Shown here: piece by piece, positions 15,869 through 64,000 of the stretch
How positions within the stretch are numbered: the first letter of the stretch is position 1
How the letters are laid out: every line of letters begins with the position of its first letter
Assembly: GCA_963975245.1 (NCBI GenBank)
Contig: CAXBFJ010000009.1
Coordinates: 24,048 to 88,047, forward strand
DNA: 64,000 bases
Source: an uncultured Panacagrimonas sp.
Lineage (GTDB): Bacteria; Pseudomonadota; Gammaproteobacteria; Nevskiales; Nevskiaceae
Direction: 5' to 3'
The notes under the pieces: model-generated
Told to the model about the DNA's origin: nothing
Databases searched by the model: none
The model's input: only the letters and a program-made list of their open reading frames with translations
Made by a program: the position numbers and the translations under genes

Positions 15869-15880
15869 GACTGCCCATGG

Positions 15881-15914: not shown

Positions 15915-15974
15915 TTGTGAGTCCGCGCAACGTCCGACCCGTCTCCGTCCATTCCAGCTCTCAGTGAAAACCTC

Positions 15975-24033: not shown

Positions 24034-24044
24034 GGCTGCAAGGC

Positions 24045-25121: not shown

Positions 25122-25122
25122 G

Positions 25123-32129: not shown

Positions 32130-32256
32130 GGGTGTTCTCCTCACTCCATTAGTTGAATCATCGCGGGAATCGGCAGTGCCTATGCATCCCATCTGAATTC
32201 ATCATGCACCATGCAACAGAGCCGGAGTTGACTTTGCGCGCGTGATTGTTGTCATT

Positions 32257-35601: not shown

Positions 35602-35763
35602 GCGAATATTCTCGTGATTGATTCGGGTGGCAGCGAGCGTCTCTATTCTAGTTGCCATGACGTGATCGTTCTCACATCGGCGATGCCCAATGTGGAACTG
35701 CATGCCAATGAGTTCGCTAAAGTAAGGGCAGTTGCCGGACAGACTGACGCTTGGGGAGAGCCA

Positions 35764-38742: not shown

Positions 38743-38761
38743 TTCCGCACAGGAGAGATAC

Positions 38762-39985: not shown

Positions 39986-40005
39986 ATCTATTGAGGAGAT
40001 ATTTC

Positions 40006-41915: not shown

Positions 41916-41954
41916 GCTGGCGCTGGCCGCCGGATCTTTCTAACTGGAGTCAAC

Positions 41955-42980
41955 ATGAAAAACCAACGCGTGGTGTTGGCCAGTCGCCCTGTCGACGCGC
42001 CAACGCCAGAAAACTTTCGTCTTGAAGAAGTCCCGGTGCGCGAGCTCGAGGACGGAGAGGTATTGATCAAGACCTTGTATCTATCCCTTGATCCCTACAT
42101 GCGCATGCGCATGAATGATGGTGACTCCTATGCCGATCCGGTCAAGATTGGCGAAGAAATGTTTGGCGGCATGGTGGGCAGAATCCTCAAGTCGCGCCGC
42201 AAAGGATTCTCCGAAGGAGACCTGGTCACTGGCTATACCGGCTGGCAAAGCCTGGCCATCACCAGCGATCCAACGCTCGCCAGGTTGCCCAGCGATATGG
42301 CACAGCCCTCTCTGGCGCTGAGCCTGCTCGGCATGCCCGGCTTTACCGCGCATTACGGGCTCTTGAAACTGGGCAAGCCCAAGGCCGGCGAAACCGTCGT
42401 CGTTGGTGCAGCCACCGGTGCAGTGGGAACCGTGGTCGGCCAGATCGCCAAGCTCAAGGGTTGCCGGGTTGTGGGTATTGCCGGAGGCAGCGAGAAGTGC
42501 GCATTTGCAGTCGACAGCCTTGGCTTTGACGCGTGCATCGATCACCGCTCCCCCGACTTCCGGAAAGACTTGAAAGCAGCCTGTCCGGACGGCGTTGATG
42601 TCTACTTCGAGAACGTCGGCGGTGATGTGCTGCGCGCCGTGCTCCCGCTGCTCAATGAGTTTGCACGTGTGCCTCTTTGCGGCGTGATCGCATGGTACGA
42701 CGGCGAGAAGAGCGGCAAGCCGGTGCTCGCTGCTGAGGTGATGACCACAATGCTGGTCAAGCGTATTGAAATGACCGGATTCGTGATCCTTGATCAGTAC
42801 GCTGATCATTACGCCGAATTCGCGCGTGACATGCAGGGCTGGGTCGCCAGCGGAAAAATGACGATTCGTGAAGATGTTGTCGAAGGCCTAGCCAATGCGC
42901 CCGAGGCGTTCATAGGTCTTCTGAAAGGAAAGAACTTTGGAAAGTTAGTCGTGCGCGTTGCAAGCGACGACGGCATCTGA
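41955..42980 (+). CDS. NADP-dependent alkenal/one (ene) reductase, MDR family
   Basis: YLSLDPYMR, LGMPGFTAHYG, AATGAVG, DVYFENVGG. Confidence 0.9.
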   Translation: MKNQRVVLASRPVDAPTPENFRLEEVPVRELEDGEVLIKTLYLSLDPYMRMRMNDGDSYADPVKIGEEMFGGMVGRILKSRRKGFSEGDLVTGYTGWQSLAITSDPTLARLPSDMAQPSLALSLLGMPGFTAHYGLLKLGKPKAGETVVVGAATGAVGTVVGQIAKLKGCRVVGIAGGSEKCAFAVDSLGFDACIDHRSPDFRKDLKAACPDGVDVYFENVGGDVLRAVLPLLNEFARVPLCGVIAWYDGEKSGKPVLAAEVMTTMLVKRIEMTGFVILDQYADHYAEFARDMQGWVASGKMTIREDVVEGLANAPEAFIGLLKGKNFGKLVVRVASDDGI

Positions 42981-43001
42981 AGCAGATCTAAGAGGCTGAA
43001 T

Positions 43002-43331
43002 ATGAGTACCTGTCAAATCACATTTATCGAGCACGATGGCGAGTCGCGTGTGGTCCAGGCACAGGAGGGACAAACCCTGATGCAGGCTGCAATTGATAAC
43101 GGCGTGACTGGCATCGTCGCCGAATGCGGTGGTGCCCGCGTCTGCGGTACCTGCCACTGCTACCTTGACGAGCCCTGGCTCAGCGCATCTGGAGAGCAGG
43201 AGGAAGACGAGAAAATGCTGGTTGAATTTTCTGAAAACTATCGCCAGGAGAGCAGCCGCCTGAGCTGCCAGATCGAGGTCAGCAAGGCGCTCGATGGCAT
43301 GGTCGTCAAACTGCCGGTGTCACAGCCATGA
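43002..43331 (+). CDS. 2Fe-2S ferredoxin, putidaredoxin type
   Basis: CGGARVCGTCH ... SRLSCQ (C-x5-C-x2-C-xn-C). Confidence 0.93.
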   Translation: MSTCQITFIEHDGESRVVQAQEGQTLMQAAIDNGVTGIVAECGGARVCGTCHCYLDEPWLSASGEQEEDEKMLVEFSENYRQESSRLSCQIEVSKALDGMVVKLPVSQP

Positions 43332-45154
43332 GCAATGATTCCCTGCTGTTATCACGACGCGACCTGGAATTCATGCTCTACGAATGGCTCGATGTAGAGT
43401 CGCTGACCCAAGCGGCCCGTTTCGAGGATCACTCAAGAGAAACGTTCGACACGGTGCTCGACACCTACGAGCGAATTGCTGTCGACCTGTTTGAGCCTCA
43501 CTACCAGAAGTCCGATCGTGAGGAGCCGGCGTTCGTCGAAGGCAAGGCCAAACTGATTCCGGAGATTTCGACCGCGCTGAAAGCGGTAGCGGAGTCGGGC
43601 CTGATGGCGGCCGGGCACGACTATGATCGTGGTGGCATGCAGTTGCCTTCGATCATCGAACGCACCGGCATGGCTTATCTGCAGGCCGCCAACGTAGGCA
43701 CCGCCGCGTACCCATTCCTCAGCATTGCAAATGCCAATTTGTTAGCCGCATTGGCCAGCGAAGCGCAGATCAAGCGCTTCGCAGAGCCGACGCTGAGAGG
43801 CGAGTTCTTCGGAACCATGTGTCTGTCCGAGCCACAGGCGGGTTCATCACTGTCAGACATCAAGACGCGCGCAGAATTTGAGTGTGAGTCCGAGTTAGGG
43901 CCGCAGTACCGCATCACCGGTAACAAGATGTGGATCTCTGCTGGTGAGCACGAGATTACGCGCAACATTGTGCATCTGGTGCTGGCCCGAGAGGTGGCTC
44001 AGGACGGCAGCTCCGTGCCTGGCGTCAAGGGTCTTTCCCTGTACATCGTGCCGAAATTCCTCGTCAATGAAAGCGGCAGCAACGGTGAACGCAATGACGT
44101 TGTGCTGGGCGGCCTGAATCACAAGATGGGTTATCGCGGCACCACCAATTGCCTGCTCAACTTCGGCGAAGGCCGCGAGCATCAGCCCGGCGGACGAGGT
44201 GGCGCGGTTGGCTATCGCATTGGTGAGGCCGGCAAGGGCATGGCCTACATGTTCCACATGATGAACGAGGCGCGTATTGGCGTGGGTCTTGGTGCTACGG
44301 CGCTGGGCTACACCGGCTACCTGCATTCGCTCAAATACGCGCGGGAACGGCCGCAGGGTAGAAGCGTCAAGGACCCGAGCACGCCGCAGCAGGCGATCTC
44401 GGAACATGCAGACGTCAAGCGCATGATCCTGGCACAGAAGGTCTACGCCGAAGGCTCGATGGCGCTGAACATGTACTGCTCTCTGCTGATCGATCAGATG
44501 ACGGTATGCGACGATGAGGCGCAGAACCAGCAGATGCATCTGTTGCTTGAGATTCTGACCCCGATTGCCAAGAGCTGGCCCTCACAGTGGTGCGTGGTCG
44601 GCAACGACATGGCCATCCAGATTCACGGCGGCTACGGCTATACCCGTGAGTTCAAGGTTGAGCAGTTCTATCGCGATAATCGCCTCAATCCGATTCATGA
44701 AGGGACGCATGGCATTCAAGGCCTGGACCTGTTGGGTCGCAAGGTGGTGATGAGCAATGGCGCGGCCCTGAAGATTCTCAGTGAGCGAATACAGCAGACC
44801 ATCGCGCGGGCCGCTCAGTCTTCACGCCACGAGCAGATGGCGCAGTCCGCCATCCTGTCCGAGAAACTGCAGCAGCTTGGCGAAGCCACCCAGACCCTGC
44901 TTGGATGCGCAGACATCTCCGCAAGGTTGGCCAATGCCACTGCCTACCTCGAGGCGTTCGGGCACATCGTGCTGGCCTGGATATGGCTCGAACAGGCGCT
45001 TGCCTGCGGTGAATCAGACGGTGATTTCCATGCTGCCAAGCGCAACGCCTGCAAGTTCTTCTTTACCTACGAACTGCCGCGCGTTGAACCTCAGCTGGCG
45101 CTGCTCAAGACCCTGGATCGAACCACGCTGGACACACCGGACAACTGGCTATGA
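43328..45154 (+). CDS. acyl-CoA dehydrogenase (long form)
   Basis: MCLSEPQAGSSL, GNKMWIS, MFHMMNEARIG, QIHGGYGY, IHEGTHGIQ. Confidence 0.93.
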   Translation: MSNDSLLLSRRDLEFMLYEWLDVESLTQAARFEDHSRETFDTVLDTYERIAVDLFEPHYQKSDREEPAFVEGKAKLIPEISTALKAVAESGLMAAGHDYDRGGMQLPSIIERTGMAYLQAANVGTAAYPFLSIANANLLAALASEAQIKRFAEPTLRGEFFGTMCLSEPQAGSSLSDIKTRAEFECESELGPQYRITGNKMWISAGEHEITRNIVHLVLAREVAQDGSSVPGVKGLSLYIVPKFLVNESGSNGERNDVVLGGLNHKMGYRGTTNCLLNFGEGREHQPGGRGGAVGYRIGEAGKGMAYMFHMMNEARIGVGLGATALGYTGYLHSLKYARERPQGRSVKDPSTPQQAISEHADVKRMILAQKVYAEGSMALNMYCSLLIDQMTVCDDEAQNQQMHLLLEILTPIAKSWPSQWCVVGNDMAIQIHGGYGYTREFKVEQFYRDNRLNPIHEGTHGIQGLDLLGRKVVMSNGAALKILSERIQQTIARAAQSSRHEQMAQSAILSEKLQQLGEATQTLLGCADISARLANATAYLEAFGHIVLAWIWLEQALACGESDGDFHAAKRNACKFFFTYELPRVEPQLALLKTLDRTTLDTPDNWL

Positions 45155-47409: not shown

Positions 47410-48810
47410 ATGAACACCGCCCGCATCAGCGCTTTTGACTCGCTATTCCTGCTGGGAGAATCGCGGCAAATCATGATGCATGTAGCGGGCATGATGATCT
47501 TTGAGCTTCCCGAAGGCGCATCTCCGGATTATCTGCGTCAGCTTGGGCAGCGGATGAAGGACAGTGCGGCGCTCTTTCCACCCTGGAATCGGCGCCCGAC
47601 AATGCCTGATGCCTTGTGGAATCCAAGGAATCGCTGGAAAGAAGAAGCCGACGTGGACATGGACTACCACGTGCGTCGTCTGGCCCTGCCAGCACCCGGG
47701 GATGAACGCGAACTCGGCGTGCTGATTTCGCGCCTGCACAGCAATCCACTCGACTTTTCGCGTCCGCTGTGGGAGGTGTATGTCATCGAGGGCCTTGAGC
47801 GAAACCGCTTCGCGATTTACACCAAGGTTCATCACGCGCTCATGGATGGATACACCGCCGTGCGATCCATGTCCCGTGCACTGGCCAGCACCCCGGAAGA
47901 ACCAGCGCGTCCATTTTTCTTTTCCGAGCCGCCTGAGCGGCGACCGACTCCGAACTACCCCGCGATCAAGTTCAATATCGGCCGCATGAGCAAAGCGCCG
48001 GTCGAGCAGGTCCAGTCGACTTATCACGCCGCTTCCGCTTTGGCGCGCTTCTGGCAGCGCGATCGAAGCGAAGCGAACAAGGATCTGGTGTCCTCATGGG
48101 AGGCGCCGATGACCATCCTGAATCAGCGTATTGGCCGCAATCGGCGTTATGCCACCCAGCAGATTGCATTGGCGGATGCCAAGGCTCTGGCAAAGCAAAA
48201 CGGCGGCACGCTCAACGACGTCGTTATCGCGCTCTGTGCAGGCGGCCTGCGTCGCTATCTGATGGAGTTCGGCGACCTGCCGGAAAAACCTCTGGTGGCC
48301 ATGGTCCCCGTCAATATCCGGCCCAAGGATGACCCGGGGGGCGGTAACGCGGTTGGCACCATTCTCGTATCCATGGCCACGCATCTTGAAGATCCTGCTG
48401 AGCGCCTGCGCGCCATCATTGCGTCGAGTCGCGCGGCCAAGGCGCAGCTCGAAGGCATGTCCACCAGCGCGATCATGCAGTACAGCAGCTTGCTGATGGC
48501 CCCATTCGGTGCGCAGGCAGCGCTCGCTTACATGGGCGTTCGAGCGCCGATTCCATTGGCCTTCAACCTGATCATTTCCAATGTCCGCGGTTCGAACGAG
48601 CCGCAGTACCTCGACGGCGCCCGCGTCGAAGCCGTCTATCCGGTTTCCATTCCGACCCACGGGACCGCGCTCAACATCACGGTGCAGAGTCATGTTGAGA
48701 GCCTCAATTTCGGATTCGTGGGATGCCGGGACACTGTGCCCAGTTTGCAGAAGCTGGCCGTATTTACCGGTCAGGAAATGCGGGCATTGCAGCAGGCGCC
48801 AGTGTCCTGA
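47410..48810 (+). CDS. wax ester synthase/diacylglycerol acyltransferase (WS/DGAT)
   Basis: HHALMDG catalytic motif, PLDFSRPLWE, TLNDVV, FNLIISNV. Confidence 0.95.
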   Translation: MNTARISAFDSLFLLGESRQIMMHVAGMMIFELPEGASPDYLRQLGQRMKDSAALFPPWNRRPTMPDALWNPRNRWKEEADVDMDYHVRRLALPAPGDERELGVLISRLHSNPLDFSRPLWEVYVIEGLERNRFAIYTKVHHALMDGYTAVRSMSRALASTPEEPARPFFFSEPPERRPTPNYPAIKFNIGRMSKAPVEQVQSTYHAASALARFWQRDRSEANKDLVSSWEAPMTILNQRIGRNRRYATQQIALADAKALAKQNGGTLNDVVIALCAGGLRRYLMEFGDLPEKPLVAMVPVNIRPKDDPGGGNAVGTILVSMATHLEDPAERLRAIIASSRAAKAQLEGMSTSAIMQYSSLLMAPFGAQAALAYMGVRAPIPLAFNLIISNVRGSNEPQYLDGARVEAVYPVSIPTHGTALNITVQSHVESLNFGFVGCRDTVPSLQKLAVFTGQEMRALQQAPVS

Positions 48811-48872
48811 AAGAAAGCTTGCCAGCGGTGATCCCTGATCAAAGCCGCGCCCACAACAACAGGAGAATTTGA

Positions 48873-49880
48873 ATGAAAGCTGTTCGCGTCATGCAACCCG
48901 CCGGTCTGGACAATCTGCGGCTGGTCGAGATGGATAAACCCAGTCCGGGTCGCGGAGAAATTCTGGTCAAGGCGGCAGCCAGTTCGCTGAACTATCACGA
49001 TTACGTCGTCGTCGTTGGCGGCCGGCCTGCCGAAGACGGTCGGATTCCCATGTCTGACATGGCCGGTGAAGTGGTCGAGGTAGGCGAGGGTGTCTCCGAG
49101 TTCAAGGTGGGCGACAAGGTGATGAGCATGGTGTTTCCCACTTGGTTGTCGGGCGAACCCACGGACGCCAACACCTGGGGCTGTATAGCCGGAGACACGG
49201 TGGATGGTTCGGCTAGCGAGTTTGTCTGTGGGCTGGAAGCCGCGTTTACGCGAATCCCGCGTGGTTACAGTCTTGAGCAGGCTGCAACATTGCCGTGCGC
49301 CGCTTTGACGGCCTGGCGAGCGTTGTTTGTAGAGGGCCAACTGCAGTCTGGCGAGACGGTGCTGATACAGGGGACGGGCGGCGTTTCGATATTTGCACTG
49401 CAAATGGTCAAGGCCGCCGGCGGCATTGCCATCGTCACCTCTTCTTCGGATGAAAAGCTCGAAAAGGCGCGTGCACTGGGCGCAGACCACCTGATCAATT
49501 ACAAGAAGAACCCCCAATGGGGCGAGGCTGCGGCCAAACTCTGCGAACGCGACGGGGTAGATCACGTGCTCGAACTTGGCGGCCCCGGTACGCTGGATCA
49601 ATCCATCGCCGCCTGCCGCACACGCGGTCATATTTCGCTAATCGGCATTCTCACAGGCTGGAAAGGCGAGGTTTCTACTGCCGCCATGATGATGAAACAG
49701 CAGCGCATGATCGGCATTACCGTGGCGTGTCGCGAAGACCAGCAGGCCATGGTTCGCGGCATTGAAAGCACCGGCATCATGCCGGTCATCGACCGCAGTT
49801 TTGCGCTGGACGAAATTGCCGAGGCTTTCCGTTATCAGGAAAGCCAGAAGCACTTTGGAAAAATCGTTCTGCGTTACTAG
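48873..49880 (+). CDS. MDR-family NAD(P)-dependent oxidoreductase (quinone-reductase/ADH-like)
   Basis: SLNYHD, LPCAALTAW, QGTGGVS, HFGKIV. Confidence 0.88.
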   Translation: MKAVRVMQPAGLDNLRLVEMDKPSPGRGEILVKAAASSLNYHDYVVVVGGRPAEDGRIPMSDMAGEVVEVGEGVSEFKVGDKVMSMVFPTWLSGEPTDANTWGCIAGDTVDGSASEFVCGLEAAFTRIPRGYSLEQAATLPCAALTAWRALFVEGQLQSGETVLIQGTGGVSIFALQMVKAAGGIAIVTSSSDEKLEKARALGADHLINYKKNPQWGEAAAKLCERDGVDHVLELGGPGTLDQSIAACRTRGHISLIGILTGWKGEVSTAAMMMKQQRMIGITVACREDQQAMVRGIESTGIMPVIDRSFALDEIAEAFRYQESQKHFGKIVLRY

Positions 49881-50746
49881 GCCTCAGCCCGTGATGGCCC
49901 GTCTTGCTGCAGAAATTCGGTGGTGAGACGGGCGATGGTTTCAGGCTGATCCAGTGGAATCCAATGCCCGCCGGGAATAACTTCTACCTTGAGGGGGGCG
50001 TTGACGAACCTGCTCGAGCCGCGCATCTGACGTTCTGTGAGATACGCGTCTTGCTGGCTCCAGATGCCCAGAACCGGGCATTGCGCAGCGGGGTAGGTCT
50101 TGAACAGAAGGTCTTTCATGTTGGCGCGGTACAGGTTCAGCGTTGCGGTGAAGCGACCGGGCCGGCGCATGCGCTCCATAACTTCTGAAATTTCTGGATG
50201 CAGGGAGAGCAGTCTGGAAAGACTTGTAGGGCCGTCGCGGAGCATGAGGTACTCGGTAACGCCGCGGAGTTGGAAGAAAAGCGTGTACCAGCCGCGCAAT
50301 TTCTGCTCCAGACCTGCATGAGCATAAGAGCTGGGGTGGCCTACCGACACGGCGACGAGTCGGCTGACGCGCTGCGGAAAATAAATGCTCAGGTACCAGG
50401 CCAGAACTGCGCCCCAGTCGTGACCCACAAGCGCGACTTTGTTGATATTCAGCTGATCAAGTAGGGCGATGAAGTCCGCAGTCACTTCGGACATGCGGTA
50501 GGCAGCGACGCTGCTAGCCATGGCGGAATCGCCGTGACCCACCGTATCGGGCGCAATGCAGCGGTAACCCGCTTCTCGCAGGTGCCCCATCACGCCAGAC
50601 CACATTTCCGCCTTGTCCGGAAATCCATGCAAGAGCAGGACGACAGGCTTGTCCGTGGCCTCAGGGGCGGTGTCCAGATAGGACAGCGACAGACCGCGAT
50701 TCTGGTAGCTCAAACGTGTGAAGTCAGCCATGGAAACCGGGAGCAT
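49877..50746 (-). CDS. epoxide hydrolase-like alpha/beta hydrolase
   Basis: LLHGFPD, GHDWGA (Asp nucleophile), GGHW. Confidence 0.85.
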   Translation of the reverse strand: MLPVSMADFTRLSYQNRGLSLSYLDTAPEATDKPVVLLLHGFPDKAEMWSGVMGHLREAGYRCIAPDTVGHGDSAMASSVAAYRMSEVTADFIALLDQLNINKVALVGHDWGAVLAWYLSIYFPQRVSRLVAVSVGHPSSYAHAGLEQKLRGWYTLFFQLRGVTEYLMLRDGPTSLSRLLSLHPEISEVMERMRRPGRFTATLNLYRANMKDLLFKTYPAAQCPVLGIWSQQDAYLTERQMRGSSRFVNAPLKVEVIPGGHWIPLDQPETIARLTTEFLQQDGPSRAEA

Positions 50747-50782
50747 CTGTTGGAAAATCCTGCTGGCAGGATCAATCAGGAA

Positions 50783-50819
50783 TGTCGGGGCGGTCTGGCA
50801 TGCTCAGGCCGCCCCGACA
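50783..50819 (-). terminator. hairpin downstream of aldehyde dehydrogenase
   Basis: TGTCGGGGCGG / CCGCCCCGACA 11-bp stem just after the 50828 stop. Confidence 0.55.
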
Positions 50820-50827
50820 CGGACCTC

Positions 50828-52252
50828 TTAGTTGGGTAAGCCAGTGATGGACTTCACTTCCATGAAATCCTTCAGGCCATGCAGGCCAGCTTCGCGACCA
50901 TTGCCGGACTGCTTGTAGCCGCCAAACGGCGCACCAGGTGCAGGCATCCAGGAGTTGATGATGACCATGCCGGCACGAAGCCGTGGTGCCACCTTGGCTG
51001 CTTCGGCGGGATCGCCGGAGATGACGGATGACAGGCCGTACTCGGTGTTGTTGGCAATCTCCACGGCTTCGTCGACTGTGTCATAGCTCATCACCGTGAC
51101 GACCGGGCCAAACACCTCTTCGCGTGCAATGCGCATCTTGGGGGTGACGCCGCTGAACAAGGTCGGTTTGATGAAGTAACCCTGACTGACGTTGTCCGGC
51201 AGGCCGACACCGCCGGTTTCCAGAGTTGCACCTTCATCAATGGCCGATTGAATCAGGCCCTGAATCTTGTCGAACTGCGCCTTGTTCACGACCGGGCCAA
51301 TGTGCTCGCCTTCCTGGCTGGGGTCGCCAACCTTGACGCTCTCCACAACGGCCTTGATGAACTGAGCGGCCTGAGCTGCCTGGTCCTTGTGCACCAGTAC
51401 GCGCGTGGGCGAAATGCAGCTCTGTCCGGTGTTGGCCATGACGCCAGATACGGTCGGTGGCAACACTTCTTCGAGCTTGGCACCCGGCAGCACGATGTTG
51501 GGCGTCTTGCCGCCCAGCTCCTGATGAACACGCTTGACCGAATCAGCCGCAGCCTTGGCAATCATGACGCCGGCGCGGGTCGAACCGGTGAAGCTCACCA
51601 TGTCGATATCGGGGTGGCTGGAAATGGCGGCGCCTACGGTCGGGCCATCGCCCTGGACCAGATTGAAAACACCGGGGGGAACGCCGGCTGCGTCCATGAT
51701 TTCCGCCAGAATGGCGGCGTTGCCTGGGCATTCTTCCGAGGGCTTGAGCACCATGGTGTTGCCGCCGGCCAGTGCAGGAGCCACCTTCAGGCAGATCTGG
51801 TTCAGCGGCCAGTTCCACGGCGTGATCATGCCGATGACGCCGATAGGCTCATAGACCACCGAGAAGCCTTCACGTTTTTCAACGAATTCGAAGTTCTTCA
51901 GCGCTTCGGCCGTGCCCATGAATGCACCCAGGCCAATGGGGGCCTGCGCGGCATTGCCGAAGCTGATGGGTGCGCCCATCTCCAGTGCCATCGAACGCGC
52001 GAGATCAGGGATGCGCTTCTGATACTCCTCCACGATGCGGCCCATCAGGGCAAGGCGTTCTTCGCGCGTGGTCTGCGAGAAGCTCTTGAAGGCTTCGCGA
52101 GCGGCAGCCACAGCCTGATCCACATCATCCTGCGTGCCCATGGTGATGCGAGTCGTGGGCGCTTCCGTCGCCGGGTTCACAACGTCATAAGGTTTGCCGC
52201 CTGGTGACGAAACCCATTTTCCATTGATGTATTGCTGTTCGTACTGATCCAT
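50828..52252 (-). CDS. aldehyde dehydrogenase
   Basis: ITPWNWP, FTGSTRAG, QELGGK, GQSC, REEVFGPV. Start trimmed to 52252. Confidence 0.95.
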   Translation of the reverse strand: MDQYEQQYINGKWVSSPGGKPYDVVNPATEAPTTRITMGTQDDVDQAVAAAREAFKSFSQTTREERLALMGRIVEEYQKRIPDLARSMALEMGAPISFGNAAQAPIGLGAFMGTAEALKNFEFVEKREGFSVVYEPIGVIGMITPWNWPLNQICLKVAPALAGGNTMVLKPSEECPGNAAILAEIMDAAGVPPGVFNLVQGDGPTVGAAISSHPDIDMVSFTGSTRAGVMIAKAAADSVKRVHQELGGKTPNIVLPGAKLEEVLPPTVSGVMANTGQSCISPTRVLVHKDQAAQAAQFIKAVVESVKVGDPSQEGEHIGPVVNKAQFDKIQGLIQSAIDEGATLETGGVGLPDNVSQGYFIKPTLFSGVTPKMRIAREEVFGPVVTVMSYDTVDEAVEIANNTEYGLSSVISGDPAEAAKVAPRLRAGMVIINSWMPAPGAPFGGYKQSGNGREAGLHGLKDFMEVKSITGLPN

Positions 52253-52403
52253 CGGTGTCTCTCCAGTCGTTGTAATAAAAAAATCTTGGATTCTGCAGTG
52301 CCCGGCTTGAGGCTCAGGCATATCCAATGCGCTCAAGCCAATTCCTTCCGGGATGTCAGTCATGCAAGCAGAACCAGCGTCCGGTCATGCTCCGCTGGGT
52401 GGT

Positions 52404-55906: not shown

Positions 55907-56022
55907 CGTGTTCCAGTCTCGTTTCAATTCAATCGAATGCTTCGGTTCATGCTCGGGGCATGCCGTAGGTTGCGCTCATCCTATTGGATGCAGCCGATGA
56001 ACGCACCGTGAAAAAGGTGGGG

Positions 56023-56739
56023 CTAGCCATCACGAGCAAGGATCGCAAGCCCCTCCAGGACCATGTGCGGGCGGTATTCCCAGGGCTCACTCAGTAGCGG
56101 CTGCAGCGTGCTGGCGTCGCCGCCGCCGATGAAGCGACGCGCGCCGGGTGCGCGTGAGGCCAGTAACTCCAAAACGCCAAGACAGGACAGCATGGCCCCC
56201 TGGCGCACGCAGGATTCGGTGTCCAGGCCCAGCCCGGCGTGCGCGTCCTGCACGGTTTCGCGTGTCTCGAATCGGGTTGCACCGAGTAATGCGGATTCGG
56301 ATGTGCTCAGGCCGGCTGCAATCACGCCGCCCTGATGCTGCCCTTGTTCGTTGAGAACATCGACGGTCAACGCAGTGCCCGCGTCGGCAACGATGCATGA
56401 TCCCTGGCTCAGCTCGAAGCAGGCGATCATGGCCAGCCAGCGGTCAATGCCCAGCCGCTGTGCTTCGGCGTAGGCGCTGATCACAGGGCCAAACTGTTTT
56501 TGTGAGCGCGCCCAATTTGGCCGCATCTGCCAGCGCGCGGTACAGGCTTCGGCGATCGCTGCGTCCTGCGCCTGACCCGCGACACTGGAAATCCAGATCG
56601 CTGCAGGCTTTTCAGTGGGCAGGCTGAGCAGGGCCTGCGCAGGTTCGCCTTTATGTGCCAGATATTCGACCGCAGTGATGTCGCGTCCTTTCAGGACCGT
56701 CCATTTGATGCGCGAATTGCCGACGTCGATGAGCAGCAT
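56023..56739 (-). CDS. coaX: type III pantothenate kinase
   Basis: LLIDVGNSRIKW, LGIDRW, ADAGTALTVD; start overlaps the birA stop. Confidence 0.93.
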   Translation of the reverse strand: MLLIDVGNSRIKWTVLKGRDITAVEYLAHKGEPAQALLSLPTEKPAAIWISSVAGQAQDAAIAEACTARWQMRPNWARSQKQFGPVISAYAEAQRLGIDRWLAMIACFELSQGSCIVADAGTALTVDVLNEQGQHQGGVIAAGLSTSESALLGATRFETRETVQDAHAGLGLDTESCVRQGAMLSCLGVLELLASRAPGARRFIGGGDASTLQPLLSEPWEYRPHMVLEGLAILARDG

Positions 56740-57719
56740 CAGCCTGGTCGCAGGGAGACGTCGCCGGCGTGGACTTCCCGCAGGCCATCGGCGGTTTCGA
56801 TGCAAAAGGCGCCGTCACTGTTGATGCCGCGACCGATGCCGCGCAGCGAGGGTTGGTCGGGCACCTGAACCGGGCGATCACGCAGGGCATCAAGTTCGCA
56901 CCAGTGGCTCAGATAGGGTGCGAATCCGGTTTGCTCGTAACGGACCAGACAGCGGCACAGTCTGGGCAGCAACTCGCAGGCCAGCCGGGTCAGGGTGATG
57001 GGTGATTTTTCGATGCGGTGCAGGCCCTCATTCACCGTGGTCCAGGGTTGATCCACCTGCGCGGCTTGAGCCGCCTGCATCGACACATTGATGCCGATGC
57101 CCACGATCACGCGGCACGCGCCGCCGGCTTCGCCAAATTGTTCAATCAGGATGCCGCCCAGTTTGCGCTGATCCAGCCACAGATCGTTTGGCCACTTGAG
57201 CCGCACGGTGTCCAGACCCAGGGCCTGCAGCGCTTGGGCGCAAACCACGCCGACGGCCAGTGACAGACTCGGCAGCTGATGCGGCCAGAGCGCGAAATTC
57301 CAGGCCACGGAGGCATACAGGTTGGCGGCAAACGGTGATTGCCAGTTCCGGCCACGGCGACCGCGGCCGGAACTCTGGTGTTCGGCGAGCAGAACCTGCG
57401 GGTCTCGTGCTGAACCAGATGCCGCGAGCACGCCATTGGTGGAGTCCAGCAGCGGCTCGACCTGAAGGCTGATGCCCGCAGGCAAAGATGCGCGAATCCG
57501 CTCCGCATCCAGGCGCTCAAGTGGCTCACGCAGCCGATAACCGAGGCCGGAGCGCGTCTCGATATCCAGGCCCCATTCGCGCAGATGCGCCATGCGCTTG
57601 GCCAATCCGGCGCGGGTAATGCCGGATTGCGCCGCCAGCTCCTCGCCGGACTGCCACTGACCGGATGCCAGGACATCCACCAGTTTGAGCAGGGCAGTGG
57701 AATCTATCGCTCGAGCCAT
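56739..57719 (-). CDS. birA: bifunctional biotin ligase/repressor
   Basis: N-terminal HTH, QSSGRGRRGR, KWPND, KLGGIL, GIGIN. Confidence 0.95.
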   Translation of the reverse strand: MARAIDSTALLKLVDVLASGQWQSGEELAAQSGITRAGLAKRMAHLREWGLDIETRSGLGYRLREPLERLDAERIRASLPAGISLQVEPLLDSTNGVLAASGSARDPQVLLAEHQSSGRGRRGRNWQSPFAANLYASVAWNFALWPHQLPSLSLAVGVVCAQALQALGLDTVRLKWPNDLWLDQRKLGGILIEQFGEAGGACRVIVGIGINVSMQAAQAAQVDQPWTTVNEGLHRIEKSPITLTRLACELLPRLCRCLVRYEQTGFAPYLSHWCELDALRDRPVQVPDQPSLRGIGRGINSDGAFCIETADGLREVHAGDVSLRPG

Positions 57720-58345
57720 CGTCCGATGAGTCTCAGTTTTTCGAAGCGGTTTTCGGTTCCGCTCATCAGGCGCGCAATATTCTCGCGGTGTTTGAATACG
57801 ATGAGCGCGGCCATGAAAGCGGTAAAGGCGCCGGCGCTGGACAGCGCACCTTGTGCATCAAAGCAGGCGACGTACAGGCCCGCCAGCGCAGCGGCGAACA
57901 GCGTGGCCAGGCTGACATAGCCGCTGAGCATCACCACCAGGACGAACCCCAGCAGCATGGCCGGCAATGCGGCGGGTAGCAGTGCGCCGAAAACACCGGC
58001 CAAAGTTGCTACGCCCTTGCCGCCCTTGAAGCCCCACAAGGCGGGATAACAGTGACCCAGGGTGACGGCAGCGCCGCAGACATAGGCCAGATGCTCGGGT
58101 GAGACGGACGCCGATCCGAGCGGCAGCAGCGGTACCAGCAGCGCACCCGCGATGCCCTTGCCCACATCAATCAGCAGGACCAGCACGGCGAAGCCCTTGC
58201 CTTGGGTGCGTAGCGCATTGGTGGCGCCCACGTTGCCGCTGCCGACCTGGCCCAGGTCGATGCCGCGCAAGCGCCCGACAATATGACCGCCCATGATGTT
58301 GCCGAGCAGATAGGCCAGCAGTGCCTTGAGCAGAAGCTCTGTCAT
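57704..58345 (-). CDS. plsY: glycerol-3-phosphate acyltransferase
   Basis: GSGNVGATNALR, DVGKG, GHCYP, FKGGKGVAT, HRENI. Confidence 0.95.
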   Translation of the reverse strand: MTELLLKALLAYLLGNIMGGHIVGRLRGIDLGQVGSGNVGATNALRTQGKGFAVLVLLIDVGKGIAGALLVPLLPLGSASVSPEHLAYVCGAAVTLGHCYPALWGFKGGKGVATLAGVFGALLPAALPAMLLGFVLVVMLSGYVSLATLFAAALAGLYVACFDAQGALSSAGAFTAFMAALIVFKHRENIARLMSGTENRFEKLRLIGRWLER

Positions 58346-58349
58346 GGTC

Positions 58350-58721
58350 TCAGGCCGGCACGTGGCTGGTGGTCACGTCTGCAATCAGTCGCTGATCGGC
58401 ACCGGTCACGGTGGTTCGCACCACACTCAGTCTGCGGCCGCGTTTGACGAACTCCGATGTCGCGCGGAAAACGCCGTCTTTCTGGTTGCCGAGCAGTTTG
58501 GCATCGAGGCTGATGGCCAGTGGAAAACCTTGCGCTCCGGGGGTCATCTCTTTACCCCCAAAGGCCAGCACGGTGGCGCAGACGTCGGCAAACCACAGGA
58601 TGGCACCAGCGTGAGCGGTACCAAAAGGGTTGAGAATGCCTTGCGTTACCGGCATTTCGCCAACGACGCGGGTTTCAGATTGCTCGGTGACTGAAAATTT
58701 GATGTTGCCGTCGACATGCAT
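58350..58721 (-). CDS. PaaI-family hotdog-fold thioesterase
   Basis: NPFGTAHAGA..FAD, GRRLSV motif. Confidence 0.85.
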   Translation of the reverse strand: MHVDGNIKFSVTEQSETRVVGEMPVTQGILNPFGTAHAGAILWFADVCATVLAFGGKEMTPGAQGFPLAISLDAKLLGNQKDGVFRATSEFVKRGRRLSVVRTTVTGADQRLIADVTTSHVPA

Positions 58722-58873
58722 GGTCTTGGTCTATCTGGGTGCGGGCGCGGCCTGTATCACGCGCTGCGCAATGTGAGCAGCGCCTGGCATGGGTCCGCTG
58801 ATGATGGTGGATGCCTTCAAGTGTAGCGAGCACGCGGCGTCGGGTCGCGGTCCGCAGGTCTTGCGCGGGCTGG

Positions 58874-61800
58874 TCAGAGGGCCGCAGCGGAATCTGCGCG
58901 TTTCAGGCTGAGCTGCTGATGCTGAGCCTGTTCAAGGTAGGTGGCAGCGCCAATACGTCGGAATATTTCCACCGCATTTTGCAACTCGGCCGACGCTTGA
59001 GTCGGCGTGTCGATCTCTGCGAGGGCGAGATGAATTTTTCCGATCTCCAGGGCTAGGCCCATTCGGACGGCTTGCTCCAGTCCAGTGCGAAGATGCTTGC
59101 GGGCCCGCTCCTTGCGGCCGATCAGCACTTCCCTGCGCGCTTCGATCAAAGCCAGCGCAGGCCGGCCAATCGGAATCAGGCGGGAGAACCCGCGCATGCT
59201 TCTGGCTGTCATGCCCAGCAGGCGAATGGCGTCCTGGTGTCTGCTGGTTTGTGTTGCCGCACTGCGCAGCACTTCTTCGATGCACAGATAGGAACTGACC
59301 TGCAGCCAGACCAGCGGGGCCTTGGACATGGCGACTTCAATGGTTTCCCGGACGAGGTCAAAGGCCTGATCGTGCTCGCCAGCGCGGTCCAGCGCCGCGC
59401 CGTGCAATCCGCGCGTGAACAGATCGGCAGCCGCATCCGGCCGGGCGGTCAGGGACTCGCGGGCGCGTCTCAACAGGCGGAGCACCGCCTGCGGATCTTT
59501 CGCGTTGCCACTGCGCAGCATCACCCCGGCAAGGCCCGCTGAGCCCCAGGCCAGGAACAGGGGGTTGTCGGTATCGGTATTTCGCTCCAACGCGGTGTTG
59601 AGGATTTCCGCCCCATCTGCCAACTGGCCGCGATAGGCCATGACATGTCCGAGGGCTGACATGACATTCCACGCGCGGGTGCGATCCCCCATGCTGTCGT
59701 AGCGATTCAGGGCGTCGCGCAGCCAGCGCTCGGAATCCGTCCACCGGCTGCCTTGTGCCAGCGCAGAGCCGCGCGCCAGACGCACCCAGGCACTGACGCC
59801 CGAATCTCGTGTGGCATCGGCTGCTTCGATGGCGGCATTGAAGGTGCGCATCGTGGTCTTTTCGCGGCCCATGCCGGATTGCAGCAGCGCGTACCAGGCG
59901 ATGGCGCGGGCTTGCTCGGGGCTGCCCAGGTTCTCCGCACCGGACAGGCGCTCAAAGCGAAGCGTGGTGTAGGCCAGCGCAAGTGGGTCATTGTCGTAAT
60001 AAAGAATGTCCGGCAGCAGGTCGTAGGCCTTGACAGCCATGCGCAGGCGTTCGGGGTCACGCAGGTGGCCGGGCGCGCGCCGCGTCAGTCGCAAGCCGCG
60101 CAGCACCAGTTCGCGCATCAGGGCCCAGACGCGGCCGGAGGTGCTGCCAGGAATGAATTCACCGAATGCGCGCAGGGCTTCTTCAATGTAGCGACGGCTG
60201 GCACGCTCGTCGCCCATCCGGTGATGGGCCTGCGCCAGGCCTAGCTCCGGTGCCCAGGCGTGGGCATGCCCCTGCAGGCTGGCGCTGCGTCCGCGCAGGC
60301 TGCGCGCGCTGGAAAAATGCTGTGCAGCTTCGCGATTGGAGAACGTCGTGAGTGCTGCATCACCCGCCTTGATTCTGGCTTCGAAGGCCTCTGGCCAGTT
60401 CTCAGCCAGTTCCCAGTTGCGCGCCAGCTCAGCCAGATGGTGGGTTGGGTGCGAGTGAGGCTGGTCTTCCAGCCACTGTGCGAACCGCGCGTGAAGCTCG
60501 CGACGCCTGCGATACGGCAGGCTGTCGTAGGCGGCGTCCCGAATGAGGGCGTGGTGAAACTTGTATTCAGCGGCGTCATCGTCCTCAACCGCGCTGATGA
60601 AGCCGCGTTCAGTCAGCAATCCGAGCTGTTCGCGGGCACTGCTTTCATCGTCCGGATGAAGATTGAGCAGCGCATCGAGTCCGAAGCTGACGCCGATGAC
60701 GGCGGCGATGCGCAAACTGATCTGTGCCTTGGGGTCGAGGCGATCCAGGCGGCTGGCGATGACGCCGTTGAGCGTATCGGGCAGGCGTGCCATGGAAGAC
60801 TGCTCCGCCTGCTGCGAAATCAGGTCCGCTTGTCCACCCTGCAAGAAGAGGCGGCCACTGTCGATGGCGGCCGCTGCAAGTTCGCGACAGAACAAGGGAT
60901 TGCCGCCGCTGCTGTTGGCAATCCATTGCGTGGCCCGTTCTGACAGTGAAGTAGCACCGATGGCCTGCTGCGCGACCCGCGCGCGGTCGGAGTCCGGCAA
61001 GGGGCCCAGCGCAATCTGATGCATACCCACGGATGACAATTGCTTGAGCACATCGGGTGGCGCGCTGGCGTCCAGTTCGCGGGTGCTGATCAGCAGCAGC
61101 AGTCCGCTTTCACTGTCGCTGGCTTCCTGGGCCAGTCGGCTGAGCAGAGCCCAGGAAAGTGAATCCATCCAGTGCGTGTCTTCAATGCACAGCAGCATGG
61201 GCGAGCGTTGCGCGGTGCTGGTGATCAGGCGGCAGATCGCGTCACGGGTGCGCAGGGCTCGCTCGGCGTCGTCGGTCTCAGGGACCTCAGCCAGCGGCTG
61301 ACCAAGGAAGCGCTGAAGGTAAGGGTCGAGCATTGCGGCAACGCCGGACTCGGTATCGCGAGACAGGGTGAGCAACTGGCGAACCACTGGTACCCAGCGG
61401 GTTTGCGGCGCGGTGTCGCCAGATTCTGCCGACGCCGTCAGGCTGATCACCGACAATGCCTCGCCACGCGCCACGACTTCGCGCACCAGACGGGTCTTGC
61501 CGATGCCGGCTTCGCCAATCAGTGCCATCAGCCCACCACGACGCTGACTGACAAGGGCATTGAGGCGGCTATTGAGAATGTCCAGCTCTGGGTCCCGGCC
61601 GTAGACCGGCGCGCGATTCGCCGCGCGCTTGCGCCGCTCGTTGCTGGCGCTGCGTTTGGAACCTGCGCGGAAATGGGTTGCCGCAGCTTCCAGGCCCTTG
61701 ACCTCGATCAGGCCTTCCAGCACGTAATTGACGCGATCCTTTGAAAGGTCGCGCGTCAATTGATCGCACAAGGGGCCCGGGGCCGCGTTCTGCATCAGGC

Positions 61801-62938
61801 GCGCGGCAAAATTCATGGTGTGGCCAATCAAGGTGTAGTGGCTGCGATGATCATTCCCGATCAGGCTGCAGAAGACGCGACCGGTTGCCACGCCCACCCC
61901 GCAGCTGATGTTGCGACGCGACAGGGCATCGACAATGTCCATCGATGCCAGCGCAGCGCGGCTGGCGTCATCTTCGTGAACGCGTGCGAGTAGGCCGAAA
62001 GCAATGATGAAGACCGGGCCCTTGTCATCCACCACAAATTGCAGAATGGTGCCTTCATGCCGGGCGACCACCTGTTGCACGGTGCGCGCTGCAACATGCG
62101 CGTTGCGGCCATCGAGAATGCCGTTGTGCAGCAAGCCGGGGAGCCGGGCGAAGATCACGCTGGGCCGCCGGAATTCAGCGAGCCAGTTGGAGTCCAGCTG
62201 ATTCAGATTGTGATGGACCGGCTCGCTCACGTGCGCCAATGCCAGTGATTCAGGGCATTCACGTGGGTGCGCGAAGGCACTCGTGCTTGCATGTCTGATG
62301 GGCTTGCAGCTGCGTACCTGCAAAATGCCATCGCCGGAGCGGCTGACCGTGATGCAGCCGTCGGCCAGCGCCCAGGCTTCAGGGGAGACGATCAGCATAT
62401 TGTTCTGGGCCAGCGCGTCCGCCCGTCCGACCTGTTCAAATGCCGGACCACTGAGCAGGCACTGCCAGCGACCAAACTCGCCGCCGACACGGTGTGCGGC
62501 AAATGCGCCCGCGCCGAGTGAAAAGCGCATCAGCGGCGTGTCGGCCTGGCTTCGCGCATTGTGTTTTTTCAAGGCATTCAGCGCTGCCGAGCTGGCCCGA
62601 TTGATGGCGCCAGACAAATCCGCTTCGATGCTGGTCGCCGGCCACAGCACGAACAAGGCGTCACCGCCAAAGACCACGACGTCGCCGCCCTCTGCTGTCA
62701 ATTCGGCAATGAGCTGGCCGATGCTGTTCTCGATCAGCTCATTGGCCAGCTCCACCCCCTCTGGCCCCCCGGCCACCAGACGTTCCACCTTGCCGGTGAA
62801 ACCCACGACATCGACAAACACCAGTGCGCCGGAGATGGTCCACTCTTCAAAACCCGGCTTTACGTCCGCGCCCAGTGCATAGCGTTCGCGTAGGAAGCGC
62901 GGCAGGAAGCGGCCCAGAGAATCAGATGTGATACTCAT
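58874..62938 (-). CDS. soluble adenylyl cyclase (ADCY10)-like protein: two class III cyclase domains + STAND/AAA NTPase + TPR-like helices
   Basis: FVDVVGFT, GGDVVVFGGDA, DDKG, GVATG.VF, TLIGHTMNFAARL, EVKG; YGRDPEL, GEAGIGKT (aa 475-482), LCIEDTHW, GNPLF, YKFHHALIRDAAY. Start trimmed to MSITSD at 62938 (~1354 aa). Confidence 0.9.
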   Translation of the reverse strand: MSITSDSLGRFLPRFLRERYALGADVKPGFEEWTISGALVFVDVVGFTGKVERLVAGGPEGVELANELIENSIGQLIAELTAEGGDVVVFGGDALFVLWPATSIEADLSGAINRASSAALNALKKHNARSQADTPLMRFSLGAGAFAAHRVGGEFGRWQCLLSGPAFEQVGRADALAQNNMLIVSPEAWALADGCITVSRSGDGILQVRSCKPIRHASTSAFAHPRECPESLALAHVSEPVHHNLNQLDSNWLAEFRRPSVIFARLPGLLHNGILDGRNAHVAARTVQQVVARHEGTILQFVVDDKGPVFIIAFGLLARVHEDDASRAALASMDIVDALSRRNISCGVGVATGRVFCSLIGNDHRSHYTLIGHTMNFAARLMQNAAPGPLCDQLTRDLSKDRVNYVLEGLIEVKGLEAAATHFRAGSKRSASNERRKRAANRAPVYGRDPELDILNSRLNALVSQRRGGLMALIGEAGIGKTRLVREVVARGEALSVISLTASAESGDTAPQTRWVPVVRQLLTLSRDTESGVAAMLDPYLQRFLGQPLAEVPETDDAERALRTRDAICRLITSTAQRSPMLLCIEDTHWMDSLSWALLSRLAQEASDSESGLLLLISTRELDASAPPDVLKQLSSVGMHQIALGPLPDSDRARVAQQAIGATSLSERATQWIANSSGGNPLFCRELAAAAIDSGRLFLQGGQADLISQQAEQSSMARLPDTLNGVIASRLDRLDPKAQISLRIAAVIGVSFGLDALLNLHPDDESSAREQLGLLTERGFISAVEDDDAAEYKFHHALIRDAAYDSLPYRRRRELHARFAQWLEDQPHSHPTHHLAELARNWELAENWPEAFEARIKAGDAALTTFSNREAAQHFSSARSLRGRSASLQGHAHAWAPELGLAQAHHRMGDERASRRYIEEALRAFGEFIPGSTSGRVWALMRELVLRGLRLTRRAPGHLRDPERLRMAVKAYDLLPDILYYDNDPLALAYTTLRFERLSGAENLGSPEQARAIAWYALLQSGMGREKTTMRTFNAAIEAADATRDSGVSAWVRLARGSALAQGSRWTDSERWLRDALNRYDSMGDRTRAWNVMSALGHVMAYRGQLADGAEILNTALERNTDTDNPLFLAWGSAGLAGVMLRSGNAKDPQAVLRLLRRARESLTARPDAAADLFTRGLHGAALDRAGEHDQAFDLVRETIEVAMSKAPLVWLQVSSYLCIEEVLRSAATQTSRHQDAIRLLGMTARSMRGFSRLIPIGRPALALIEARREVLIGRKERARKHLRTGLEQAVRMGLALEIGKIHLALAEIDTPTQASAELQNAVEIFRRIGAATYLEQAQHQQLSLKRADSAAAL

Positions 62939-63047
62939 GGCGCCTTCGCAATGCTGCGGGATTGGAGACGATGGGCGGGCACGGGGTCTCTGTGGGCAAG
63001 GCCGAAGTGATGAAGATGTGCAGGATACGGATTTTGAGGGAGCAGGG

Positions 63048-64000
63048 ATGGCAGGTACGGGCAAGAGGGTATTGATTTTGGGAGGTGGTGTCGCCGGCAT
63101 GAGCGCTGCCCATGAACTGATTGATCGCGGCTTCGCGGTCACCGTCCTTGAGGCGCGGGATATCCCCGGCGGCAAGGCACGCAGCATGGCGAGTCATTCG
63201 GACGGCTTGCCCGGCGAGCACGGGTTCCGTTTTTTCCCCAGTTTCTATCAGCACCTGACCCACACCTTGCAGAACATCCCCTACCGGAATAACCGGCTGG
63301 GTGTGCTCGGCAATCTGGTGGACACCACGCGTGCGGGTGCAGCGAGATTCGGCAAGGATCTGATCATCCTCAACTCGGGATTTCCTGATACGCCGGACGC
63401 CTTCATGGAAATGGCGGATGATCTGGTGGGGAATCCTTTCGGTCTCAGCGCCGAGGAAACCCGCTTTTTTGGCGCGCGCATGATGCAGATTGCCAGTAGT
63501 TGTCACGAGCGTCGTGTTGAGGAATACGAAAAGATCGGCTGGTGGCAGTTCATCGAGGCGGACCGATTTTCTGACAACTATCGCAGTGTCCTGGGATCGA
63601 CAACCCGATCCCTGGTGGCCGCTGATCCACGCAAGGCCAGTGCGCGCACCATTGGCGACATCACCCTGCAGGCCGTCATGGGGCTGAGTACGCCAGGCAA
63701 AACCTATGATCGCGTGCTCAATGGCCCCACCAGCAAGGTGTGGATTGATCCCTGGCTGGAGCATCTGCGCGCGCGTGGGGTGGACTACCGCTTATCCTGC
63801 CCGGTCACCGCCTTGCAGGGCGATGCGCGCGGGCTGTGCGGCGTCACCGCCAGTACCCCCAGCGGCGAGCAGACATTCGAAGCGGATTGGTATGTCGTGG
63901 CCTTGCCGGTGGAAAAAATTGCTGGGCTGCTGACCGATGACCTGCGCGCGGCTGATCCGGCGCTGGCGGCCGTTGATGGTTTGTCACAGCACGTTGCCTG
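63048..64000 (+). CDS. 3'-truncated FAD-dependent oxidoreductase (amine oxidase / carotenoid-desaturase-like family)
   Basis: Absent from the ORF track because it runs off the window. MAGTGKRVLILGGGVAGMSAAHEL...EARDIPGGKARS, LPGEHGFRFFP, LNGPTSKVWIDPW. Confidence 0.88.
   Translation, partial: MAGTGKRVLILGGGVAGMSAAHELIDRGFAVTVLEARDIPGGKARSMASHSDGLPGEHGFRFFPSFYQHLTHTLQNIPYRNNRLGVLGNLVDTTRAGAARFGKDLIILNSGFPDTPDAFMEMADDLVGNPFGLSAEETRFFGARMMQIASSCHERRVEEYEKIGWWQFIEADRFSDNYRSVLGSTTRSLVAADPRKASARTIGDITLQAVMGLSTPGKTYDRVLNGPTSKVWIDPWLEHLRARGVDYRLSCPVTALQGDARGLCGVTASTPSGEQTFEADWYVVALPVEKIAGLLTDDLRAADPALAAVDGLSQHVA

Follow-up and report, generated by a model that had tools for sequence, protein, structure and literature searches.

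A bacterial sAC-like cyclase-STAND-TPR protein from Panacagrimonas and its relation to mammalian ADCY10

Soluble adenylyl cyclase (sAC), the product of ADCY10, is the closest described relative of the protein discussed here, a cyclase-STAND-TPR protein encoded on the minus strand at 58874..62938 of a 64,000-nucleotide stretch of DNA from an uncultured Panacagrimonas sp. (contig CAXBFJ010000009.1). This whole stretch is referred to as the window, and its cyclase as the window protein. Haem-binding and autoinhibitory segments have been reported in the full-length isoform of sAC (sACfl), a protein of 187 kDa. Full-length sAC also has a predicted STAND/P-loop domain (PMC12802110, citing Leipe 2004 and Danot 2009). 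In bacteria, an sAC-like enzyme from Chloroflexus has been reported to respond to bicarbonate, according to the statement in PMC11006738 that cites Kobayashi 2004.

Two other groups of described proteins share parts of this architecture. The MalT, LAL and AfsR regulators and PH0952, a STAND protein with a TPR sensor, have an AAA_16 NTPase, a Walker B motif of the DDxHWxD-like type, a GxP motif, a winged helix and a C-terminal TPR sensor, as does the window protein, for which PH0952 is the best fold match and AfsR the best regulator match. The effector differs: in the window protein it is a pair of cyclase domains at the N-terminus and not a DNA-binding domain. The protein is not placed among the LAL/MalT transcription regulators because it has no C-terminal LuxR-type helix-turn-helix (HTH). 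The TOMM kinase/cyclase fusion (TIGR03903) and the mycobacterial Rv0386 group, which has a cyclase-ATPase-TPR-HTH architecture, are similar in that a class III cyclase is followed by AAA_16 and TPR regions. In contrast to the window protein, members of these groups have a single cyclase domain that must dimerise, and they carry a LuxR HTH or an N-terminal kinase. TIGR03903 is the best NCBIfam model for the window protein (aa 275-878 aligned to model positions 314-917). The score of 172 bits lies below the equivalog cut-off of 706, so that membership was rejected; a kinase domain is also absent from the Pfam scan.

The window protein is a cytoplasmic, full-length bacterial homologue of sAC, and most likely acts as a ligand-gated synthase of cyclic AMP (cAMP). 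As in sACfl, the modules are ordered C1, linker, C2 and STAND P-loop NTPase, the catalytic residues D47, D99, K334, T405, N412 and R416 have their equivalents (listed below), the catalytic cores have superimposable folds, and both proteins are cytosolic and lack transmembrane segments. The two differ in that their identity is about 23%, that the window protein is about 250 aa shorter, and that the bicarbonate-site residues K95 and R176 of human sAC are replaced by V89 and G171.

The tandem cyclase module

Residues 1-430 form an intramolecular C1-C2 class III pseudo-heterodimer of the IIIb type, with Thr at the base-recognition position and one complete active site. The coding sequence and the parts of this module are as follows.

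58874..62938, minus strand: complete coding sequence of 1354 aa plus stop, sAC-like cyclase-STAND-TPR protein (open reading frame (ORF) and translation, conserved ATG)
62303..62938, minus strand: C1 cyclase domain, aa 1-212, with the metal-binding residues D43 and D93, and V89 and G171 at the positions of sAC K95 and R176 (alignment to sAC 39-201, fold)
62192..62302, minus strand: C1-C2 linker, aa 213-249 (AlphaFold2 pLDDT lower, about 73, at aa 211-230)
61649..62191, minus strand: C2 cyclase domain, aa 250-430, with K306, T369, N376 and R380 (Pfam Guanylate_cyc, alignment to sAC 283-433)

When the protein was compared with all PDB sequences using phmmer, human sAC was the only strong match (E 3e-25), with two collinear stretches, aa 35-196 aligned to sAC 39-201 and aa 250-397 aligned to sAC 283-433. 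An earlier model-generated interpretation of the DNA letters (the sequence-only reading) had proposed two tandem class III cyclase domains collinear with human sAC and had quoted pairs of matching motifs. Every pair it quoted lies inside this alignment, in which FVDVVGFT/FVDISGFT, AQNNMLIVSPEAWAL/AQMNDVILSPNCWQL, GVATGRVFC/GVASGIVFC and TLIGHTMNFAARL/TVIGQKVNLAARM are found. A family profile, built like the conservation counts below on 54 full-length homologues, aligns with both cyclase domains of sAC in a single stretch (profile 10-433, sAC 17-469; E 4e-89), and the second-best profile match after sAC is a single-domain cyanobacterial cyclase (E 1e-31). The linker of sAC spans residues 216-249 (PMC12867704, Table 1) and has its counterpart in aa 213-249 of the window protein.

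The fold agrees with the sequence alignments. The AlphaFold2 model of aa 1-440 has a mean predicted local distance difference test score (pLDDT) of 92.3 and a predicted template modelling score (pTM) of 0.92. In a Foldseek search of this model against the PDB, the first 24 matches are all human sAC, with template modelling (TM) scores of 0.80-0.84 and E values down to 2.6e-34, followed by the soluble domains of the membrane cyclase AC9 at a TM score of about 0.7. Taken together, phmmer, the family profile and the modelled fold confirm the collinear tandem arrangement, with similarity well above chance level. In the comparison with domain models that had been proposed as a check, Pfam recognises the C2 domain and the AAA_16 domain, and it does not detect C1. 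Its cyclase matches are limited to the C2-like domain (Guanylate_cyc, aa 307-423, E 3e-7); C1 is too divergent for the model and is clear from the sAC alignment and the fold.

The roles of the catalytic residues in sAC were taken from PMC12867704 (Table 1) and PMC12250328, and their equivalents in the window protein are listed below.

Metal binding: sAC D47, here D43, conserved in 54/54 homologues
Metal binding: sAC D99, here D93, conserved in 54/54
Base recognition: sAC K334, here K306, conserved in 50/54
Base recognition: sAC T405, here T369, conserved in 37/54
Product release (steric clash): sAC N412, here N376, conserved in 52/54
Interaction with the alpha-phosphate: sAC R416, here R380, conserved in 54/54
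Pyrophosphate receptor: sAC K144, here R138 (phmmer alignment)

Because the equivalents of the sAC catalytic residues are present and conserved, the C1-C2 module is predicted to be catalytically competent and adenine-specific. The same residues bear on the suggestion that the module is catalytically silent, binding ATP as a ligand or scaffold and making no cyclic nucleotide. Among the fold matches is PDB entry 6yii (TM score 0.56), which we take from its title to be a class III adenylyl cyclase-like ATP-binding protein of Pseudomonas aeruginosa; C1 is divergent enough to escape Pfam, and one degenerate site is common among tandem cyclases. Against a silent ATP binder, all residues needed for catalysis in sAC are present and almost invariant across the family, and the active human enzyme matches far better (TM score 0.84, E 2.6e-34) than 6yii (E 5.5e-14, 12% identity), which phmmer did not detect among the PDB sequences. 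Such a role is therefore possible but disfavoured, and we consider it improbable.

A different set of residues concerns regulation by bicarbonate. The bicarbonate site of human sAC (Lys95 and Arg176) is absent from the window protein, with V89 and G171 at these positions. Lys is found at the K95 position in 35 of the 54 homologues, including most family members outside the Nevskiales; Val takes its place in the Nevskiales clade, that is in the window protein and its seven closest relatives. At the R176 position, Arg is retained in only 5/54. Animal sAC orthologues that are substituted at either residue are not activated by bicarbonate (PMC12867704), and the window protein is therefore probably not bicarbonate-regulated in the mammalian way. 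Many animal sAC orthologues also lack the bicarbonate site (PMC12867704), so that the site marks the mammalian mode of regulation and not membership of the family. It could still be proposed that the window protein senses bicarbonate or CO2 like mammalian sAC and the Chloroflexus enzyme, with the STAND-TPR part having merely a structural or localisation role. T369 marks a IIIb-type enzyme, and the reported response of the Chloroflexus enzyme and the Lys shared by the larger part of the family point in this direction. Both site residues are replaced in the window protein itself, and this proposal, possible in principle but disfavoured, is very improbable.

The STAND NTPase and TPR half

The cyclase pair is followed by a STAND NTPase of the MalT/AAA_16 type, in which all nucleotide-binding motifs are intact, and then by about 546 aa of TPR helices.

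60515..61606, minus strand: STAND NTPase module, aa 445-808, with nucleotide-binding, helical and winged-helix domains (Pfam AAA_16, motifs, fold)
61493..61516, minus strand: Walker A motif or P-loop, GEAGIGKT, aa 475-482, with K481 (motif position, conservation)
61163..61195, minus strand: Walker B region, LLCIEDTHWMD, aa 582-592, with D587 and D592 (motif position, conservation)
58877..60514, minus strand: TPR-like helical sensor region, aa 809-1354 (all-helical AlphaFold2 model, pLDDT above 90)

Pfam places AAA_16 at aa 445-613 (E 1e-19), and the P-loop matches of NACHT and NB-ARC are marginal. In the homologues, G475, G478, G480, K481, D592 and the sensor-1 residue R620 are invariant, and D587 is nearly so. 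Further motifs, likewise intact and conserved, are the GxP motif GGNPLF (678-683), SRLDRL (729-734) and the winged-helix motif FHH (794-796). The AlphaFold2 model of aa 431-1354 (pLDDT 92.3, pTM 0.89) shows, in this order, a Rossmann-type NTPase, a helical domain, a winged helix and helical hairpins from about residue 809 to the C-terminus, with TPR helices up to the last residue. The best fold match of this half in the PDB has an E value of 2.7e-13 (PH0952), followed by Apaf-1, Cdc6/ORC and plant NLRs, and the C-terminal part of the family profile matches PH0952, AfsR, LGN/Pins and designed TPR proteins. Matches of Pfam TPR_12 and TPR_2 in aa 809-1354 are weak.

Neither GerE nor any other HTH family was found in the Pfam scan of the window protein or in the precomputed Pfam lists of its homologues. 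The sole hydrophobic 19-mer (740-758, Kyte-Doolittle 1.84) forms a helix buried in the winged-helix domain, which is modelled with confidence. The protein thus has no transmembrane segment and is cytoplasmic. For this half, the sequence-only reading agrees well with the analysis: the intact P-loop with K481 as its Walker A lysine, the winged-helix motifs after the NTPase, seen both as FHH and as a modelled domain, the roughly 550 aa of TPR-like helices, and the absence of an HTH and of membrane segments are all recovered.

The STAND module is found at the same place as in animal sAC, since one unbroken alignment to an avian ADCY10-like fragment takes in C1, C2 and the P-loop (PVYGRDPELD...GEAGIGKTRL against PLLGRKQETD...GTMGCGKSHL). 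For this comparison, the human sAC core, rebuilt from the PDB alignment, was searched against a database of 5.8 billion proteins, which yielded ADCY10 fragments of at most 542 aa only.

The family and the genomic neighbourhood

The window protein belongs to a bacterial family for which the JGI uses the name 'class 3 adenylate cyclase/TPR repeat protein' in many homologues; members in Kouleothrix, Chloroflexus, Archangium, Myxococcales and Nevskiaceae are annotated as 'AAA family ATPase'. It is collinear with the other members at 27-63% identity and has the same Pfam content. Of the 8,000 candidates scored in a word-indexed search, 1,497 proteins reached E<=1e-10. Those that match over their full length, at 96-99% coverage and 27-31% identity, belong to Kouleothrix, Chloroflexus, Archangium, Myxococcales and metagenomes, and partial or shorter matches include Isosphaeraceae and Acidobacteriota. 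An exhaustive HMMER search with the C1-C2 module alone gave 13,023 cluster representatives (50% identity clusters) at E<=0.001, of which 1,386 reach E<=1e-30. Among the 150 best matches, the majority are 1,250-1,450 aa long, with the module N-terminal in one stretch. One database protein of 5,195 aa (P0192) has four separate C1-C2 module stretches and may be a giant multi-sAC protein. Within the family, the Nevskiales clade stands apart, with 48-63% identity to the window protein and a sharp drop to about 30% in other members.

The novelty implied by the sequence-only reading goes too far: these numbers and the JGI naming show that the architecture is not unusual, and the STAND domain of ADCY10 has already been published (PMC12802110). 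With well over a thousand sequence clusters of this architecture, the protein is an ordinary finding when taken alone. The family is large and recognised and has been little studied biochemically; the window protein amounts to a well-founded annotation rather than a discovery.

The gene boundaries are well defined. The mechanical ORF on the minus strand ends at 58874 and has its upper limit at 63187. The start was placed at the ATG at 62938, because the longer ORF would overlap the divergent plus-strand gene for an FAD oxidase that begins at 63048, and because this ATG is conserved across four orthologous loci (the window, L001, L002 and L004), between which the upstream sequence diverges; the extension to 63187 was rejected on both grounds. 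GAAGG is found a few bases upstream of this ATG. The full-length protein of 1354 aa that had been read from 58874-62938 is borne out by the translation and by the conserved start. The identical protein is present in the database on 6 contigs. The divergent neighbour begins with an ATG at 63048; its product, which begins MAGTGKRVLILGGG, is FAD amine-oxidase-like, and the gene is cut by the window end. The two regions adjoining the start are given below.

62939..63047: divergent intergenic region of 109 bp, presumed promoter region (sequence)
63048-64000 in the window, plus strand; 3937-9900 in L001; 3942-9909 in L002; 1937-7903 in L004: divergent upstream three-gene block, present in all four Nevskiales loci

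The region 62939..63047 has no match to the sigma-70 consensus. The promoter scan gave 0 promoter-like sites, terminator-like sites are at or below chance, and the Rfam and tRNA scans of the window were both empty.

The closest genome loci are those of Panacagrimonas sp. metagenome-assembled genomes (Nevskiales), with protein identities of 95% and 63%. The sequencing runs listed in a search across run kinds, not aimed at RNA, are from marine, marsh, marine-sediment and algae metagenomes and from two coded organisms, all typed 'DNA?'. In the window, L001, L002 and L004, the cyclase gene occupies the same position, with oxidoreductase genes on one side and plsY-birA-coaX-pyc on the other. The upstream block encodes an FAD amine-oxidase-like protein (~545 aa), an FAD/NAD(P)-binding oxidoreductase (~730-750 aa) and a fusion of a fatty-acyl-reductase (NAD_binding_4) with an SDR (~690 aa). 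Downstream, a variable set of small genes precedes plsY, birA, coaX and the pyruvate carboxylase gene. This set consists of a hotdog thioesterase in the window and of a hydrolase, HxlR, an SDR and proteins of 123 aa and 145 aa in L004; in L002 only an SDR gene was read before the contig end. An operon with the downstream hotdog thioesterase was considered and rejected, since L002 and L004 have other genes downstream. The neighbouring genes of five distant homologues (Kouleothrix, Archangium and three metagenomic genomes) are unrelated to one another, and no recurring partner gene was found in the seven homologue contexts examined.

This neighbourhood bears on the idea, raised by the sequence-only reading, that a phage protein could be the cue. 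In such an NLR-like antiviral sensor, the TPR region would recognise a phage protein, the STAND module would oligomerise, and a cyclic-nucleotide alarm would fire a distant abortive-infection effector, by analogy with Pycsar/CBASS and Avs-type systems. The STAND and TPR architecture does resemble that of antiviral STAND proteins, PADLOC gives weak PycC matches (best E 6e-8, aa 320-383), and toxin/immunity, reverse-transcriptase or toxin-antitoxin genes are found close to some of the distant homologues (Archangium L006, L008 with HigB, L009 with VapBC). However, the PycC matches are partial and span about 60 residues of the generic cyclase core, and PADLOC matched no Avs, NACHT or other STAND defence model. 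The genes adjoining the cyclase are those for the FAD oxidase and the hotdog thioesterase, no ORF for a cyclic nucleotide-binding protein was found in the window with the low-sensitivity probes described below, and none of the seven homologue contexts has an adjacent effector. These findings do not place the protein in Pycsar. Nor do they place it in Avs/bNACHT, given its core-genome position and a cyclase as its effector. Pycsar cyclases make pyrimidine cyclic nucleotides, whereas the base-recognition residues here, K306 and T369, are of the adenine type found in sAC. In four related genomes, the gene keeps its chromosomal site amid genes for housekeeping and lipid metabolism, and this site is not a variable island. 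With a syntenic site next to housekeeping genes and no recurring partner gene, the phage-defence reading lacks contextual support. A phage protein as the cue is likewise not supported by context, given the shared gene order in the four Nevskiales genomes, the lack of a recurring effector and the weak, generic PycC matches. Defence is thus a possible but disfavoured role, with little chance of being the right one.

A receptor for the cyclic nucleotide was also sought in the window. No cyclic nucleotide-binding protein was found at E<=10 in six frames with two single-sequence probes of limited sensitivity, namely the cyclic nucleotide-binding kinase of L009 and Escherichia coli CRP. By-eye reading of the window genes, which include pilBCD, fabH, prpR-BC-acnD, glcDEF, monooxygenases, a P450, WS/DGAT and dehydrogenases, found no cyclic nucleotide-binding gene. 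The earlier statement that no such effector is visible in the window agrees with both searches. In L009, a fusion of a cyclic nucleotide-binding domain with a Ser/Thr kinase (5351-6865, minus strand) lies two genes upstream of the cyclase-STAND-TPR gene; it is a candidate cAMP receptor that was seen once.

Several other features of the window were noted. From 56001 to 62000, the G+C content is about 0.635-0.64 over coaX-birA-plsY and the cyclase gene, against 0.575-0.62 before 56 kb; as the increase extends beyond the cyclase gene, it does not point to recent transfer. At 9138-9773 (plus strand), a 211-aa ORF without a Pfam match has a signal-peptide-like N-terminus and tandem C-x-(E/A)-(D/N)-P-(E/V)-x-C repeats, several of which are followed by a Lys/Arg/Glu-rich stretch, for example CEADPEACKAEREAKREERRAK. 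A 509-aa Pro/Ala-rich ORF with a hydrophobic C-terminal anchor, also without a Pfam match, is found at 35614-37143 (plus strand). The methylcitrate-cycle genes prpR, prpB, prpC, acnD and a prpF-like gene were recognised by eye at 11941-18578 and 26817-28112, the prpF-like gene being displaced by about 8 kb, past a glcDEF-like glycolate oxidase cluster (22786-26607). Genes of a lipid/hydrocarbon oxidation type, also read by eye, are dense at 30489-32192, 38606-45154 and 47410-52363. They include two Baeyer-Villiger/flavin monooxygenase-like genes, a P450 with DUF3237 and a 2Fe-2S ferredoxin, as well as an acyl-CoA dehydrogenase, a WS/DGAT-like wax-ester synthase, an epoxide-hydrolase-like alpha/beta hydrolase and an aldehyde dehydrogenase.

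Proposed mode of action and significance

Synthesis of a cyclic nucleotide on some cue, as proposed in the sequence-only reading, is a reasonable expectation. In the proposed mechanism, the C1-C2 module would make 3',5'-cAMP from ATP, and the TPR region would bind a cytoplasmic ligand or protein. On binding, ADP/ATP exchange would take place and the STAND module would change its conformation or oligomeric state, and this would in turn alter the cyclase output. The most likely route would be relief of autoinhibition, and an alternative route would be a higher-order assembly that modulates kcat. The cAMP formed would act via cAMP receptors encoded elsewhere in the genome, and the protein would therefore serve signalling in general and would not be a defence module complete in itself.

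Induced proximity is the logic of single-domain cyclase-STAND fusions and of NLR effectors. Activation of this kind is not required here, because C1 and C2 already pair within one chain. The sequence-only reading had relied on STAND proteins that oligomerise to switch on an effector. A switch by the STAND module is retained in the mechanism above; oligomerisation as its means is less compelling when the C1-C2 site is complete in one chain, and relief of autoinhibition is no less likely. In mammals, truncated sAC was only about 3-fold more active than the purified full-length enzyme (PMC12802110).

Several points weigh against a ligand-gated cAMP synthase of the sAC type. T369 is kept in only 37 of the 54 homologues, the others having Ala or Ser, and the substrate specificity and regulation put forward here are read from residues alone. 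The sequence comparison with ADCY10 extends only as far as the P-loop, and the low-sensitivity probes revealed neither a cAMP receptor nor a phosphodiesterase in the 64-kb window. In addition, nucleotides have no isoform-specific effect on purified mammalian sACfl (PMC12802110), so that even the best-studied member does not yet prove the STAND switch model.

A more far-reaching proposal is that bacterial sAC-like STAND-TPR proteins are NLR-style switches, in which a TPR ligand and ATP-dependent oligomerisation would set the cAMP output, and that the cue in the Nevskiales clade is not bicarbonate. In this form, the proposal is rather unlikely. The cue of the clade could be a lipid- or hydrocarbon-derived metabolite, as suggested by the oxidoreductase and fatty-acyl-reductase neighbours, or a protein of an invader.

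The identification of the window protein as sAC-like improves its annotation, as it gives a better name than 'AAA family ATPase' and flags the loss of the bicarbonate-site residues in the Nevskiales clade. The STAND/TPR half of sAC lacks an explained function even in mammals, and purified full-length sAC showed no isoform-specific regulator in 2025 (PMC12802110). The bacterial homologues are compact, have confident models and would probably be easier to express, and they could be used to test STAND control of a cyclase that is complete in a single chain. If the NLR-style switch were true, the family would offer a prokaryotic system in which the ~1,100-residue regulatory region of mammalian ADCY10 could be modelled with less difficulty.

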